Virus record (IMG/VR): IMGVR_UViG_2571042438_000008 | Reading direction: 5' to 3' (one strand) | Source: a virus | Lineage: Duplodnaviria; Heunggongvirae; Uroviricota; Caudoviricetes | Length of the DNA stretch: 47,797 bases | Shown: positions 4,726 through 44,736 of the stretch, in pieces | Position numbering within the stretch: the stretch's first letter is position 1 | How the letters are laid out: the number at the start of each line of letters is the position of its first letter | Program-made: the position numbers and the translations under genes | The notes under the pieces: generated by a model | What the model saw: the letters and a program-made list of their open reading frames with translations, nothing else | What the model was told of the DNA's origin: nothing | Database searches by the model: none

Positions 4726-4740
4726 ACCACGTAACGTGGT
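4726..4740. promoter_or_regulatory. Repressor-type operator dyad ACCACGTAACGTGGT in the repA upstream region
   Basis: Perfect 5-N5-5 inverted repeat identical in arms to the three dyads in the cI/cro-like intergenic region; followed directly by TATGAT (4741-4746). Confidence 0.5.
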
Positions 4741-4780
4741 TATGATTGTGGGTGTCTGGTTGGAAAGTGACCAGATATGG

Positions 4781-4861
4781 AAACAAAAAGCCCGCAGATA
4801 AATCTGCGGGCTTCTTGCGACATCCACGGAAAACCAACAACTAACCATGGGCGCCTCGACA
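4781..4861 (-). ncRNA. Candidate CopA-like antisense RNA of the repA leader (~80 nt)
   Basis: Minus-strand perfect -10 TATAAT (plus coords 4868-4873) with weak -35; minus-strand intrinsic terminator (10-bp GC-rich stem 4789-4812 followed by a U-run); lies inside a 16-bp inverted repeat of the leader (4823-4838 / 4875-4890). Confidence 0.45.
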
Positions 4862-4905
4862 ACTCCCATTATACGTTGGTTTTCCGTGGACGCAAGAGCG
4901 AACAT

Positions 4906-5754
4906 ATGGATAGACCAATGCCGTCTCTACGTTCAGCTTACGTTTGTAATTTGTCGCCGGAGTTCCAGCCTCCAAAGCACCATACGCACAAGCTGCCGCT
5001 GGTGTTATCTGATGCTTTACAGCGCATTAATGGGCGTGATCTTACGTGTGAGGTTGCGTTCTACGTTAATCAACCGTCAGAGCGGAAGCGCCGGATAAAC
5101 GAGCATCGTCGTCGGGCGATTAATGCTGTGATCGCTGCGATTTTGCACCATGTAAACATCATTTCTAAGCGGGTTCTGGCCAGTGCTGAGGCGTTGGCTG
5201 ATTTTTGCGGCCTGTCTACCGTATCCGAAGCTGGGAACAAGTCTATAACGCGCTGTACAAGGGCGTTGTCGCAACTGAAAGCGTTAGGTTTTATTGATTA
5301 TGAACGTCGCTGGGATCGGGTGAATAAACAGTATTGGCCAGCGAAAATAGAGATTCGTGATCAACTGCTGGAAACCGTTGGTATTACTGAACAAGCATGG
5401 AGACGTGCGGTTAGCCAGAAACTTAATTACTTCAATGCGAAGAATAGCGAACGGCTTAAAAAAGCGATAACGGAGGCTGATTATAAGCGTATTGTTATTC
5501 AGGAGCAGATGGAGAATGTATGGCATCAGAGGAAGACGGCCAGAGAGATAAAGGCAAAACAGAAAGCAGCGGAGAGAGCTGCGCGTCTTGTTCGGGAAAA
5601 GGGAGAGGCCGAACTTCGTCATCAAATCACTAGAGAGGTTAGCCAGGAATTTGCTGATGGCATGTATCCTGGAGCTGACCTTGCATATTTACGATCCCTC
5701 GTTGAGCAGCGTTATAACAGGTTAAGAAAGACCTGGAAATCACTCCAACATTAA
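4906..5754 (+). CDS. repA: Replication initiator RepA, IncFII (RepFIIA) family
   Basis: Translation aligns with R100/R1 RepA1 as recalled (RRRAINAVIAAIL..., SITRCTRALSQLKALGFIDYE vs SITRATRALTFLSELGLITYQ); start chosen at the in-frame ATG 4906 by length; the ORF is open upstream to 4777. Confidence 0.85.
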   Translation: MDRPMPSLRSAYVCNLSPEFQPPKHHTHKLPLVLSDALQRINGRDLTCEVAFYVNQPSERKRRINEHRRRAINAVIAAILHHVNIISKRVLASAEALADFCGLSTVSEAGNKSITRCTRALSQLKALGFIDYERRWDRVNKQYWPAKIEIRDQLLETVGITEQAWRRAVSQKLNYFNAKNSERLKKAITEADYKRIVIQEQMENVWHQRKTAREIKAKQKAAERAARLVREKGEAELRHQITREVSQEFADGMYPGADLAYLRSLVEQRYNRLRKTWKSLQH

Positions 5755-11399: not shown

Positions 11400-11658
11400 T
11401 CGAGGCTAATCAAATGGTGGTGAGCCGTACAGGGTTAGCCTTACCGGACACAATGACGAACCGGCGCGGATTTCTCCGCCCCTGTACGACCCACCATAAT
11501 TTGGGCGTAACAGTGCTCTACGCATAAAAAAACCGCTAACGCGGTATGCGCCATCGTGTTATTCAGGAGGCTAATCCCGGCCGTAGATTTTGCTACGGCT
11601 CGGAAAGTGTCCACCAATGGCGCATTTATGTCAATACGGCGGGATTTTAACAGAGACA

Positions 11659-11673
11659 ACCACATAGCGTGGG
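11659..11673. promoter_or_regulatory. Degenerate operator-like dyad ACCAC-ATAGC-GTGGG upstream of the antirepressor operon
   Basis: 9/10 arm match to the ACCAC-N5-GTGGT dyad. Confidence 0.3.
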
Positions 11674-12116
11674 TTTATTGGTAGGCAGAAACAAAAAAAC
11701 CGCCCTATTGAGGACGGTTCTTTCGTGCTGATCGGATTCGCGGTCCTTTCAGCATTACGTTGTTGTATAAACAACCACGCAAGCACAAGCAGCAAGTTAA
11801 TTTTACCCAAAAGGTAATAATAGTCCACTATTATGCTTCAAAAAATTGTGGTTCTTGTTGTGCCTGCAAACTCACAGATTGTGGGTAGGTTACTGATTTT
11901 GTGAAAATAAACGAGTTTTTTCGTTTAATTTCTTTCCTATTACTAATCTTAAAATAATCGTAAAATACCTGTGGACCTTCCCGCCGATTCGCACCCGGGC
12001 ACCGACTTTAGGGGAGGATTCTCCGTTGCCGTACATGCAAGCACAAGCAGCCGTGCTTGCTCTCGCGTTGTTTTCGTCGGTGGGGATGCCGTGAAACGGC
12101 CTGTAAGGGCCATACA

Positions 12117-12239
12117 ATGAAAAAATACTGTATGTGTATTTTTATCGTTGTTACTGGGGCTTTGTTTACGCCACATGGGGAGGGTTGGAAGATTACTGAT
12201 AACGCTCTGAATGTGACGATAAACATTAGCAGCAAGTAG
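12117..12239 (+). CDS. Small hydrophobic peptide (40 aa; MKKYCMCIFIVVTGALF...)
   Basis: ATG 12117 in an otherwise ORF-poor, hairpin-rich region; followed 7 nt later by a strong intrinsic terminator. Confidence 0.3.
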   Translation: MKKYCMCIFIVVTGALFTPHGEGWKITDNALNVTINISSK

Positions 12240-12245
12240 CGATTA

Positions 12246-12268
12246 GGCCCCTTCGGGGGCCTTTTTTT
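12246..12268 (+). terminator. Rho-independent terminator
   Basis: GGCCCC-TTCG-GGGGCC stem-loop followed by T7. Confidence 0.8.
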
Positions 12269-13451: not shown

Positions 13452-13586
13452 GTGTTTGGTTATATAATTCTATAAATCTATATTTATAGAACGAGGTAAG
13501 CATAACCAACTTTTTGGCTGATGAAAAGCGTTTTATATAATTATATAAATCTATAATCATATAAGCGGGCGTTAGCCCGCTTGCAG

Positions 13587-13961
13587 TCAGAGGTCAGCTA
13601 TCGTTGATATCAGTTGATTTGCTAGCTGTCGCTGTTTACGTGAGAGGGTTAGAGCAGCTTCTGAGCGGTCGCTAAGAGGGGGGGTTTCATCAAGAATCAT
13701 GAGGCATACAGAAATAATAGCCCTGTTATATGCCATCAATGGCTGGCACAGCTTCGATACCGCTGGCACATCGTATTGTAAGGCCGTTTTGAGGCAGACT
13801 TTTTGTTCTGATGCCAGATGAAGGATAGATTCTATCCAGTCGATATCTTTCTCATTATCAATGATTTGGCATAACATACACTCAATCGCTATGTTCAACG
13901 CTTGGATTTCGATTCCAGCAGTGATCAGAGTTTCGTTTTTATTGGCTGTATGTAATTCCAT
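13587..13961 (-). CDS. Hypothetical protein encoded immediately downstream of the repressor gene
   Basis: 124-aa ORF; operator dyad 13997-14011 lies between it and cI; hairpin 13564-13581 after its stop. Confidence 0.45.
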   Translation of the reverse strand: MELHTANKNETLITAGIEIQALNIAIECMLCQIIDNEKDIDWIESILHLASEQKVCLKTALQYDVPAVSKLCQPLMAYNRAIISVCLMILDETPPLSDRSEAALTLSRKQRQLANQLISTIADL

Positions 13962-13996
13962 GCGTAGCCTCTTTTATACTTTTACATGTTGTCAAA

Positions 13997-14011
13997 ACCA
14001 CAAAATGTGGT
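13997..14011. promoter_or_regulatory. Operator dyad ACCACAAAATGTGGT
   Basis: Perfect ACCAC-N5-GTGGT between the cI stop and the 13961 start. Confidence 0.5.
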
Positions 14012-14053
14012 TTTTTTGAGCGTAGAAATGCACGGCTTTCGCCGTGCTGTGTA

Positions 14054-14710
14054 TCATAACCAGTTGACAACACTAACTACGCGGCCAAGAACTTTATAAC
14101 GCTTAAATTCCTCGTTATTCAGATGCTTAGTGTTCATTTCAGCATCCCTTTCGGTTGACAGCATAACAGCATTGTCACCCGGTATGACTCTACAGTGCCT
14201 CAAAACAACCAGGCCATTTCTGTCTTCAAGGGCATAGATCCCCTCATGAATCTCTGTATCGTCTGTATTAATCAGGACTTGGGAGCCTGGGGATATTGTT
14301 GGTGACATTAACTCATCGTTGCTCTGGAGAACTGACAGAGACGATGGGTTGATGTTCTTGCTTCGTAGAATCTCCTGTTCTATCGCCAGCACTGGCTTTT
14401 CTCCGGCGTGCGATGCTATGTCATTTTTTATAGCTACAAGCCCAGGAATAACAGGAGCGTTAGTATTCTGGGGTGGGAACGGGTTATCTGTTAAGCACGC
14501 GATATAAGGCGCTGATGCTTTCAGGGCGTGCGCGATTTTCTTGATGGCAGGTATAGATGGTTGTCTTAATCCGGCCTCATAGTTCTGCAAGGTGCTTAAG
14601 CCTATTCCAGTGACTTGCTGGAGATCTCCGGCAGTCATGCCGGATTGTTTCCGTAGAGTCTGAATGCGCAGACCTATTTCTTTCTTGATGTTCTCGTCGT
14701 TGCTTTTCAT
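14054..14710 (-). CDS. CI-type prophage repressor (N-terminal XRE HTH plus C-terminal S24/LexA-like peptidase domain)
   Basis: HTH-like segment MTAGDLQQVTGIGLSTLQNYEAG; 218 aa with a C-terminal S24-type fold as judged from the translation; divergent from the cro-like gene with operators between. Confidence 0.85.
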   Translation of the reverse strand: MKSNDENIKKEIGLRIQTLRKQSGMTAGDLQQVTGIGLSTLQNYEAGLRQPSIPAIKKIAHALKASAPYIACLTDNPFPPQNTNAPVIPGLVAIKNDIASHAGEKPVLAIEQEILRSKNINPSSLSVLQSNDELMSPTISPGSQVLINTDDTEIHEGIYALEDRNGLVVLRHCRVIPGDNAVMLSTERDAEMNTKHLNNEEFKRYKVLGRVVSVVNWL

Positions 14711-14747: not shown

Positions 14748-14762
14748 ACCACATTTAGTGGT
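14748..14762. promoter_or_regulatory. Operator dyad ACCACATTTAGTGGT (cI-proximal)
   Basis: Perfect ACCAC-N5-GTGGT in the cI/cro-like intergenic region. Confidence 0.6.
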
Positions 14763-14829
14763 TTTCACATGGTAAGACGAGAGGTGGACCACAAATAGAA
14801 GGTTATTTTTTGTTTCGCCCATTGAAAAA

Positions 14830-14865
14830 CTCACGATATGTGGTTTTAATACCACGTATCGTGGT
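14830..14865. promoter_or_regulatory. Two adjacent operator dyads (CTCACGATATGTGGT 14830-14844; ACCACGTATCGTGGT 14851-14865), cro-like proximal
   Basis: Tandem dyads with 21-bp centre spacing just upstream of the 14885 start. Confidence 0.6.
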
Positions 14866-23199: not shown

Positions 23200-23275
23200 G
23201 GCCCCTTAGCTCAGTGGTTAGAGCAGGCGACTCATAATCGCACGGTCATCGGTTCAAATCCGGTAGGGGCCACCA
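23200..23275 (+). tRNA. tRNA with CAU anticodon (Met or Ile2/lysidine type), 76 nt including CCA
   Basis: Cloverleaf elements readable: acceptor GGCCCCT/AGGGGCC, D-arm AGCTCAGTGGTTAGAGC, anticodon loop CTCATAA, T-arm GGTTCAAATCC, 3' CCA; close to E. coli tRNA-Ile2 as recalled. Confidence 0.85.
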
Positions 23276-26155: not shown

Positions 26156-26779
26156 ATGACAAAACATCTTAATGTGGTTTCTTTACCACTTTCTGTGTTG
26201 ATTGGTTATGAAAAGAACGCTCGCACACACTCCGTGGAGCAGGTAGATCAGATTGTTGCCAGCATACAGGAGTACGGATGGACTAATCCGATCCTGATAG
26301 ACGAGAACAACGTTGTAATTGCTGGTCATGGTCGAATTGCTGCGGCCACTCAGTTGGGGATGGATGAGGTTCCCTGCATTGTTCTGGAAGGGCTAACGGA
26401 GAATCAGAAGAAGGCATATCGTCTGGCCGACAACCGTATTCCGCTGAATGCTGGTTGGGATGAAGAGTTGTTAAGCGCGGAGCTTGCAGATCTTGCGGCC
26501 GATGATTTTGCTCTGGACTCAATTGGTTTTACTCAGCGCGAACTGGATAACTTATTGAGTGCGGCGGTCTACGATGACACAGAGGGTATGGATATCCCAT
26601 TTGAGAAGGATGAGGCCAAATCAGGCGTAAAAGTTCAGTACCTGTCATTTGGAGGTCATAAAATCCCGGCAACGGATGAGGAAGCGGATCGTTTTGACTG
26701 CGCGGTGTCTCGTTATGTTGATGATAATGGCAGCTATATCGGATTTGTATCCGCATTGCTGGCTGGGGAGGTGTGCTGA
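26156..26779 (+). CDS. ParB N-terminal (ParB/Srx nuclease-like) domain protein, paralog 1
   Basis: LIDENNVVIAGHGRIAAATQLGMDEVPCIVL; paralogous to 29446..30036. Confidence 0.7.
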   Translation: MTKHLNVVSLPLSVLIGYEKNARTHSVEQVDQIVASIQEYGWTNPILIDENNVVIAGHGRIAAATQLGMDEVPCIVLEGLTENQKKAYRLADNRIPLNAGWDEELLSAELADLAADDFALDSIGFTQRELDNLLSAAVYDDTEGMDIPFEKDEAKSGVKVQYLSFGGHKIPATDEEADRFDCAVSRYVDDNGSYIGFVSALLAGEVC

Positions 26780-43745: not shown

Positions 43746-44736
43746 AACGCTTTTTGATGTTATATATCAGAATGTAAATATTACCGCTCATATGTCACCT
43801 GATGTTTTGTCAATGTCTTATACAGATAATGAAGATGGTCAGGTCGATGATATTTCTATTATATTAAAAAATGATGATGGGAAATGGTCTGGAGACTGGA
43901 CACCTAAAAAGGGTGATTTTATTGATTTGAGCTTTAAGCCTATAAATCAAATCGTCCTTGAGTGCGGGAAATTCCAGGTAGATGGCATAACTTGCTCTGG
44001 ACCACCTTCTGTGGTTGAGGTAACTGCTGTTTCTGTTCCTATTTCATCAGGCATTAGACGTGATTTAAAAAGTAATGCATGGGAAAAAACAACTCTTAAA
44101 GATATAGCAACTTCTATAGCTAAATTAGCTAACCTTGAACTGTTGTTTCTTATTGATGGTGATAGTAATCCATATTATGCACGTGAAGATCAAATGGAGG
44201 AAAGCGATTTAAAATTTCTCCATCGACTTTGCCAGGATGAAGGGTTGTCGTTAAAGGTCACTGATAGCCAATTAATAATATTTGCTCAAGAGATGTTTGA
44301 GCAAAAAGATCCTATCGCTACGCTTACGTTAGGTATTGATGAGATAATCAGATATAGCTTTAGCACACAATCTACAGATTTGTATAAAAGTTGCACGTGC
44401 AAATATCGCGTACCTAAAAAAAGAAAGTCGCTTTCGTATACTTGGGTAGATCCATCCGTAGAAGAAGGGTCGAATCTTAAGATAAGAAAACTGGTAGCTA
44501 ATTTAGATGAAGCAAAACGTAAGGCAAAGGCTGCTTTGCGGCTTAAAAATAGATATCAAAATACCGGATCTTTAGTATTGGTTGGAGACACCAGATTGGT
44601 AGCTGGTGTAACTATAAATCTGGAGGGATTCGGTTCATTTTCTGGAAAATATCTTATATCGAAAGCTGTGCATTCAATTGGGACTAGTGGTTATACCACC
44701 TCGATTGATGTCCGAAGAGTAATTAATGGGTATTAA
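43735..44736 (+). CDS. Baseplate hub / late control D-like protein (P2 gpD-like)
   Basis: 333 aa; position after gpX-like; central EESDLKFLHRLCQDEGL resembles the gpD family as recalled. Confidence 0.65.
   Translation: MLRKTLFDVIYQNVNITAHMSPDVLSMSYTDNEDGQVDDISIILKNDDGKWSGDWTPKKGDFIDLSFKPINQIVLECGKFQVDGITCSGPPSVVEVTAVSVPISSGIRRDLKSNAWEKTTLKDIATSIAKLANLELLFLIDGDSNPYYAREDQMEESDLKFLHRLCQDEGLSLKVTDSQLIIFAQEMFEQKDPIATLTLGIDEIIRYSFSTQSTDLYKSCTCKYRVPKKRKSLSYTWVDPSVEEGSNLKIRKLVANLDEAKRKAKAALRLKNRYQNTGSLVLVGDTRLVAGVTINLEGFGSFSGKYLISKAVHSIGTSGYTTSIDVRRVINGY

Follow-up and report, generated by a model that had tools for sequence, protein, structure and literature searches.

The described systems closest to the locus analyzed here come from the phages lambda, P1, and P22. 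In lambda, the accessory genes rexA and rexB are co-transcribed with cI, with no terminator in between and upstream of OL, and RexB, like SieB, is a membrane protein. A repressor gene followed by terminator, operator, and gene is what the lambda map shows at cI–OL/PL–N and does not show at rex; N is a basic, arginine-rich, disordered RNA-binding antiterminator made from a strong promoter. In P1, the small protein Coi (69 aa) is encoded upstream of c1, and its promoter P1coi carries the operator Oc1d. In P22, the operator-controlled regulator gene ant is opposed by the convergent promoter of sar, whose short RNA is complementary to the ribosome-binding site. Here we analyze an open reading frame (ORF) of 124 codons immediately downstream of a cI-like repressor gene in the virus record IMGVR_UViG_2571042438_000008, a stretch of 47,797 nt referred to below as the window.

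A preliminary description of this DNA had placed the ORF in a rex/sieB-like slot and proposed that it encodes a superinfection-exclusion or abortive-infection protein. The gene of unknown function, its place, its operator, and the hairpin after it all hold up, but the exclusion function finds no support in any feature that we could test. Instead, the ORF proves to be part of a conserved cassette with two features missing from that description, a terminator that separates it from the repressor gene and a predicted antisense promoter inside its coding sequence. The cassette anatomy and the conservation of this promoter under synonymous constraint are new and make the regulation of the ORF testable. 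Phage-plasmids of such size are common in clinical and animal Escherichia coli, including ATCC 25922, and close relatives were isolated as phages plating on Yersinia pestis; to our knowledge, their immunity and maintenance circuits are almost unstudied. The ORF is the sole uncharacterized component that is always present in the immunity region.

Anatomy of the cassette and a predicted antisense promoter within the gene

The elements of the cassette are the following (strand given where one applies).

14054..14710, minus strand: cI-like repressor gene, 218 aa (Pfam HTH_3, 4.5e-11; PHROG transcriptional repressor, 9.6e-27)
14030..14047, minus strand: intrinsic-terminator hairpin GCACGGC-GAAA-GCCGTGC, 7-bp G+C stem, −15 kcal/mol, z −3.83
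13997-14011: operator dyad ACCACAAAATGTGGT, an exact ACCAC-N5-GTGGT, 36-50 nt before the ATG
13968-13971, minus strand: Shine-Dalgarno sequence GAGG, 6 nt before the ATG
13587..13961, minus strand: the 124-aa ORF with ATG start, a member of phrog_7632, predicted to encode an acidic soluble four-helix bundle
13866-13895, plus strand: sigma-70-like promoter within the ORF (codons 23-32), −35 TTGGCA, 18-nt spacer, −10 TATGTT
13902..14018, plus strand: predicted cis-antisense RNA of ~115 nt, covering ORF codons 1-20, the ATG, and the Shine-Dalgarno sequence, and ending in the dyad hairpin and T7
13563-13582, minus strand: hairpin after the ORF stop, AAGCGGGC-TAAC-GCCCGCTT, 8 bp, −14.9 kcal/mol, z −3.22
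13460-13491 and 13533-13564: a pair of AT-rich direct repeats of 32 nt (88% identity), spaced 73 bp apart

The order of these elements is conserved: the repressor stop is followed by a terminator, ~10 nt, the dyad, 35-40 nt, the Shine-Dalgarno sequence, the ATG and the ORF, and then by a second terminator, the AT-rich par repeats, and parA. The layout from the first terminator to the ATG is kept in seven lineages. The ORF adjoins the repressor gene on the same strand, as had been described, and starts 92 bp beyond its stop; the sequence (G/A)AGAGGC at the Shine-Dalgarno site is kept in Escherichia-type relatives.

The hairpin between the two genes is retained with compensating stem changes in the seven lineages, and our scan tool calls it a terminator in L016 and L003, relatives from Citrobacter and Salmonella. 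The T tract following it is weak in the window (ATTTCT), and T6-7 in every diverged relative. A conserved terminator at this position indicates that the ORF is insulated from the repressor transcript. At the other end of the gene, the hairpin after the stop is kept in seven of nine lineages (L015 lacks it, and the sequence of L018 is too short) and is called a terminator in L016. The ORF would therefore represent an insulated transcription unit bracketed by two terminators, a putative "left arm" of the immunity region. The 32-nt repeats beyond it bracket the parA promoter region and mark the end of the ORF unit; equivalent TATATAATTATATAA repeats are found in all relatives that have parA, and they are likely the centromere/operator of a type Ib ParA/82-aa protein system.

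The operator dyad that had been reported between the repressor gene and the ORF is perfect, and one of five exact sites in the window. Its arms are invariant over the seven diverged lineages and the same as those of the sites in the repressor/cro intergenic region, whereas the central 5 nt and the flanks are variable. Two distant lineages carry paired ACCAC sites ~20 bp apart before the ORF, like the tandem sites at PR. On the plus strand, the dyad can form a hairpin of −9.3 kcal/mol, which is followed by T7.

The best promoter-like element of the region lies inside the ORF and points in the antisense direction. Its position weight matrix (PWM) score is 10.1-11.6 in five of the seven lineages, 9.0 in L015, and 9.8 in L020, compared with 10.6 for PR, and only 49 of the 95,522 window positions score at least 10. 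The scan tool finds this promoter in the window as well as in L016 and L003, and the Citrobacter and Salmonella copies have an extended −10 TG. We compared the codons of the ORF across the seven lineages, which elsewhere are saturated at synonymous positions. No variation occurs in the codons under the two hexamers (Asn23 AAC, Ile24 with the rare codon ATA, Cys31 TGC, and Gln32 CAA) or in codons just upstream of the antisense −35 (Ile34-Asp35-Asn36 and Asp39); those of the promoter spacer are variable. Of the two-fold degenerate codons, 7 of 11 within residues 1-40 show no variation, versus 1 of 13 in the rest of the ORF, and mean codon identity is 0.66 versus 0.42 (Mann-Whitney p 0.003). The synonymous-site constraint thus coincides with the two hexamers of the promoter-like element.

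The position of this promoter together with the dyad hairpin and the T-run behind it predicts the cis-antisense RNA listed above; Rfam has no family at this position. A conserved promoter that opposes the gene argues that expression of the ORF is held down. On the sense strand, a PWM scan of the 130 nt upstream of the ORF in eight lineages revealed no sigma-70 promoter that was consistently above the background mean. Inspection by eye led us to reject a LexA box, a CRP site, and a sigma-54 element before the ORF, which are unconserved or wrongly spaced, and likewise a leaderless layout similar to lambda PRM and a combination of TTGACA (present in the window only) with GAGGCT.

The protein and its family

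The ORF is a real gene under purifying selection, with a ratio of non-synonymous to synonymous substitution rates (dN/dS) of 0.17 relative to L011/L012 (14 synonymous and 9 non-synonymous differences) and of 0.14-0.20 relative to distant relatives. Its product matches phrog_7632 ("unknown function") over the full length (residues 1-124 versus profile 1-124, E 6.1e-84, 279 bits), a family without assigned function in which membership says nothing of mechanism. The absence of a recognizable domain, noted beforehand, is borne out by our searches: no Pfam (E up to 1), NCBIfam, or PADLOC family was found, the lone line from the PADLOC-DB defence profiles was a non-significant one to NucC (11.9 bits, E 0.032), and a sequence profile search of the PDB returned chance matches only (E at least 0.1).

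AlphaFold2 models the product as a four-helix bundle with helices at residues 2-36, 40-61, 66-91, and 96-123 (pLDDT, the predicted per-residue confidence, 91.6; pTM, the predicted template modeling score, 0.85). The fold matches are generic and include no known anti-defence fold or family. Structure prediction and remote-homology search, proposed as checks in the preliminary description, thus yielded a confident bundle and no informative sequence or fold match. The protein is acidic (pI 4.8, net charge −6; family range −6 to −12), has no transmembrane segment or signal sequence (maximum 19-residue Kyte-Doolittle average 1.5), and contains no enzymatic or nucleotide-binding motif; the other family members likewise lack a membrane segment. 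The polar residues conserved in the family are mainly acidic (E27, D35, D41, E44, D64, and E101), together with Q53 and Q110. No study of the ORF turned up in literature searches that covered the names of the phages, the accessions of the proteins, their locus tags, and the family of phage-plasmids.

The family is small, with 12 clusters at 90% identity. An exhaustive hidden Markov model search of 1.8 billion representatives returned seven proteins, all of the same family, and a broader profile that includes a Serratia homolog collects 25 clusters, all unannotated; a scan of GTDB genomes gave no confirmed relative. The family is confined to one Enterobacterales phage-plasmid lineage (about 25 clusters). 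In every relative found, the ORF follows the repressor gene, i.e., in Salmonella, Citrobacter, Yokenella, metagenomic lineages down to 29% identity, and Serratia. The Serratia marcescens plasmid has the same gene order with a 128-aa protein in the ORF slot, which is detectable as a homolog by profile comparison only (95% probability). L015 retains the pair of repressor gene and ORF and lacks parAB. The ORF is therefore a fixed core of the immunity region in this lineage and not variable cargo.

At every depth, the ORF encodes the fastest-evolving protein of the neighborhood. Identities to the window in the relatives are:

ORF product: 37-60%
Repressor: 61-65%
Cro-like protein: 71-75%
ParA: 88-95%

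Between the window and L011/L012, we also observed a recombination patch that is restricted to the ORF, with a synonymous divergence (dS) of 0.19 compared to 0.013 in the repressor gene and 0.053 in parA. Truncated alleles form four separate clusters (P0008, P0009, P0011, and P0012), and these independent frameshifts all occur after ...ASEQK at the same site:

13800-13804: A5 run, site of the frameshift alleles, ORF codons 53-54

The P0009 allele is present in two assemblies, one of them a full-length 49.6-kb contig. Frameshift alleles in several assemblies suggest that the ORF is unneeded for maintenance of the plasmid. L024, one of the frameshift assemblies, in addition has its repressor gene divided between two ORFs.

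The integrative Aliivibrio phage vB_Alvi_H905 (L023, 4246-4864) carries a repressor 30% identical to that of the window and, downstream of it, a gene for a 92-aa helical protein. We considered this protein as a homolog in the same slot and rejected it, as it is non-homologous to the ORF product. Behind the 92-aa gene lies an ORF of 134 aa, annotated as a hypothetical protein of 128 aa, which by eye has the look of a LuxR-type helix-turn-helix (HTH) protein.

The phage-plasmid and the dispersed operators of its repressor

The window represents a circular phage-plasmid that combines regulatory logic of the P1 kind with a myovirus-type structural module; it is not a lambdoid prophage, the setting that the preliminary description took for comparison. 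Around the ORF, three circular Yersinia phages of 49 kb (vB_YpM_39, 41, and 44) match the window at 99% identity, and the ORF is present on 61 complete non-mobilisable plasmids of 44-52 kb, chiefly from Escherichia, among them that of E. coli ATCC 25922 (48,488 bp; NZ_CP009073). The window contains tail genes, and contractile-tail sheath, tube, and baseplate proteins are annotated in the Salmonella relative. Its RepA belongs to the IncFII family (Pfam, 1.2e-43), and the gene for a ParA ATPase is followed by that for the 82-aa protein. According to Rfam, the window also has a P1/P7-type immI region, in which a C4 antisense RNA and isrK lie upstream of an antirepressor gene:

11413-11612, minus strand: immI RNAs, C4 (70.8 bits) and isrK (68 bits), both over their gathering scores
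9976-11175, minus strand: gene for a 399-aa ORF6N/Rha antirepressor, with a small ORF, downstream of C4/isrK

The c4-a1b1 target scores just under its Rfam gathering threshold at the immI region. A near-operator, ACCACATAGCGTGGG, with one mismatch is located just upstream, at 11659-11673, and may be an analog of P1 Op51.

The C-terminal domain of the repressor is S24-like but degenerate, with a Peptidase_S24 match of 18.4 bits, below the 23.3-bit cutoff. Around residues 140-150, the G(D/M)SM of LexA and lambda cI is replaced by NDELMSP, and the related Aliivibrio repressor reads NDEAM; from this replacement, the catalytic serine appears to be lost. This suggests that the repressor may be induced via the antirepressor and not by RecA-stimulated self-cleavage.

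Besides the site at the ORF, candidate operators of this repressor include:

14748-14762 and 14851-14865: two exact copies in the repressor/cro intergenic region
14831-14845: operator with two mismatches in the same region
4726-4740: exact dyad before repA (4777..5754, plus strand), abutting a TATGAT −10 box

The five exact ACCAC-N5-GTGGT sites in the window compare with 0.01 expected from shuffles, and the dyad at 13997-14011 is one of the repressor's predicted operator set rather than a chance palindrome. The intergenic sites overlap PR (−35 at 14822-14827, −10 at 14845-14850) and the upstream region of the repressor gene itself, and the dyad and TATGAT at repA precede the conserved RepA domain by ~200 nt. 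The dyads at the ORF, at repA (L026 14712), and between repressor and cro recur in L026, a Salmonella relative with a repressor 65% identical to that of the window. The predicted regulon of the repressor is thus dispersed and includes repA, and via the dyad at this gene the phage repressor probably throttles plasmid replication. Comparable throttling of replication is exerted by CB at N15 repA and by CopB in IncFII plasmids.

The fifth exact dyad (44001-44015) is located inside a tail gene and probably occurs there by chance, as it is absent from the Salmonella relative. A dyad with one mismatch at 26185-26199, near the start of a ParB/Srx-like gene (26156..26779), is conserved at L026 36201. 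Elsewhere in the phage-plasmid, a ryfA RNA match (11971-12267, plus strand, 141.8 bits) holds a small ORF (MKKYCMCIFIVVTGALFTPHGEGW...), which we presume to resemble a TimP-type type I toxin; the close relatives L001, L002, and L024 have a 179-190 aa HTH regulator in its place. A tRNA-Met gene (CAT anticodon) is present at 23200-23275 on the plus strand.

Possible functions and comparison with known systems

Our tentative explanation, which we favor with less than even confidence, is that the ORF is gated by the repressor, buffered by antisense transcription, and kept silent in the stable lysogen, and that its product probably binds another protein, possibly the repressor. The repressor operator would occupy the only possible place for a promoter of the ORF, and the opposing internal promoter would fire across its ribosome-binding site. 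Control would be doubly negative, with the repressor on the dyad and the cis-antisense RNA mopping up leaky message in the plasmid-prophage, so that the protein would be made only when repressor is scarce, i.e., upon infection, induction, or a fall in copy number. The product would act by protein binding, not by catalysis or at the membrane, presumably through an acidic face comprising E27, D35, D41, E44, and E101. Among specific roles, we place first that of an anti-immunity or commitment factor acting on the repressor; speculatively, an acidic face and an operator specificity that is constant across lineages would fit binding to the DNA-binding surface of the repressor. An early protein directed at the host or a competitor is nearly as likely as such an anti-immunity factor.

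Several observations weigh against this explanation. The T tract after the dyad on the antisense strand is just 2-5 T in relatives (T7 in the window), the predicted antisense RNA is not unusually structured (z −1.4), and the constrained codons fall in the most conserved motif of the protein; the evidence for the antisense promoter is conservation of sequence. As no convincing sense promoter was found, transcripts that pass the repressor terminator might be the sole source of ORF expression. Moreover, the single dyads at the repressor's own promoter (−52) and at repA (−51) match the position of that at the ORF (−50 from the ATG), and as both these genes must be expressed in the lysogen, expression of the ORF may be throttled there yet real; the c1 promoter in the P1 record is likewise overlapped by C1 operators. 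Divergence of the ORF and of the repressor is uncorrelated within the Escherichia-type clade (r about 0), as exemplified by a pair with repressors 74% and ORFs 35% identical, and the ORF allele of L011/L012 was exchanged separately from the repressor (dS 0.19 versus 0.013). Both findings weaken the idea of a dedicated partner of the repressor, and the missing co-evolution speaks equally for a target outside the circuit, in the host or a competing phage. Finally, the product has no homology to Coi and only generic fold matches.

Some of these points favor a gene that is expressed in the lysogen at a low level, set by the repressor and compensated for copy number, and that protects the host from other phages by superinfection exclusion or abortive infection, which we consider rather unlikely. 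Its place next to the repressor gene on the same strand would suit this role, and the single-dyad geometry is that of two promoters that must be active in the lysogen. Moreover, a fastest-evolving protein with an independently exchanged allele is the pattern typical of conflict genes, and the loss-of-function alleles mark the gene as apparently accessory to maintenance. However, the conserved terminator blocks co-transcription with the repressor gene, an operator of predicted high affinity is located at the promoter position (with two sites in distant relatives), and the conserved antisense promoter faces the ribosome-binding site. In addition, the product lacks any membrane segment, enzymatic or nucleotide-binding motif, or PADLOC match, and the gene is a fixed core component and not the cargo of a hotspot.

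Alternatively, the ORF could encode an early anti-defence or host-takeover protein, transcribed under repressor control directly upon DNA entry or on induction, whose acidic face neutralizes a host or competitor protein, e.g., a DNA-binding or nuclease component. We regard this as unlikely. An operator-gated unit at the lambda "N/PL" position recalls the accessory genes of the lambda PL operon, and a small, acidic, lineage-restricted, and fast-evolving product with few conserved acidic residues, encoded by an apparently dispensable gene, would be expected of such a protein. Yet the ORF has no strong early promoter, DNA mimicry would call for more than the modest net charge of −6 to −12, no match to a known anti-defence fold or family was found, and the model does not require the strict linkage to one repressor family that we observe.

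Very improbable is a plasmid-maintenance accessory, either as a third component of the type Ib ParA/82-aa system or as a Rop-like modulator of IncFII antisense control: the ORF lies between the repressor gene and parA in most relatives, the same repressor has an operator at repA, and a 124-aa four-helix bundle has the size of a Rop dimer, but ParA retains 88-95% identity in relatives whose ORF has 37-60%, which speaks against co-evolution, the ORF stays with the repressor gene where parAB is absent (L015), a terminator parts it from par, no Pfam Rop match is found at E up to 1, and two assemblies carry frameshift alleles, one on a full-length contig. On the divergence rates and L015, we rejected a partition accessory.

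Returning to the repressor-gated, antisense-buffered gene, its furthest-reaching form is improbable at present. In this form, the ORF would found a new family of repressor inactivators or co-factors that builds a bistable double-negative loop with a probably non-cleavable repressor. Its cassette would have three layers, i.e., insulation by terminators, an operator that doubles as terminator of the antisense RNA, and an antisense promoter kept in the coding sequence by synonymous selection. Since the same repressor would gate the IncFII repA, plasmid copy number would through such a cassette be tied to the choice between lysis and lysogeny. We know of no prior description of a three-layer cassette of this kind. 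A product that proves to act in commitment or against immunity would account for the switching-off of a probably non-self-cleaving repressor and for the link of this switch with plasmid replication. Should the product instead serve defence or anti-defence, it would represent a new family with a minimal fold.

Among the known systems, lambda rexA-rexB and sieB share with the ORF a location near the repressor gene and on its strand. The ORF is a single gene with both a terminator and an operator between it and the repressor gene, so that co-transcription as in rexAB is not expected, and its soluble acidic product, without transmembrane segment, SieB-type Pfam match, or any other family match, is no counterpart of RexB or SieB. 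In its order of repressor gene, terminator, operator, and first leftward gene on the strand of the repressor, the locus corresponds to lambda OL/PL-N. Unlike N, however, the ORF encodes a folded acidic bundle, has no strong promoter, and is directly followed by a terminator.

P22 ant/sar offers a parallel for the predicted antisense control, in that an operator-controlled regulator would be opposed by a convergent promoter and a short RNA would cover the ribosome-binding site. In contrast to sar, the predicted antisense promoter of the ORF is located inside the coding sequence, ~60 nt past the ATG. The ORF product has no homology to Ant, and the window has its separate ORF6N/Rha antirepressor under c4 control.

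A further analogy is with P1, whose prophage is likewise a plasmid and which also has operators at dispersed sites as well as a c4/ant immI region. Like coi, the ORF is a small gene beside the main repressor gene, on the same strand, and with its operators. The window repressor is of the HTH/S24-like cI type and not of the P1 C1 type, and the 124-aa product is encoded downstream of the repressor gene and behind a terminator, whereas Coi is shorter and encoded upstream. The resemblance is by analogy only, as comparison of the two proteins with hhalign gave a probability of 0.27%. By this analogy, a repressor that represses its own inactivator, as in P1, would form the same double-negative loop that we propose here for the phage-plasmid.

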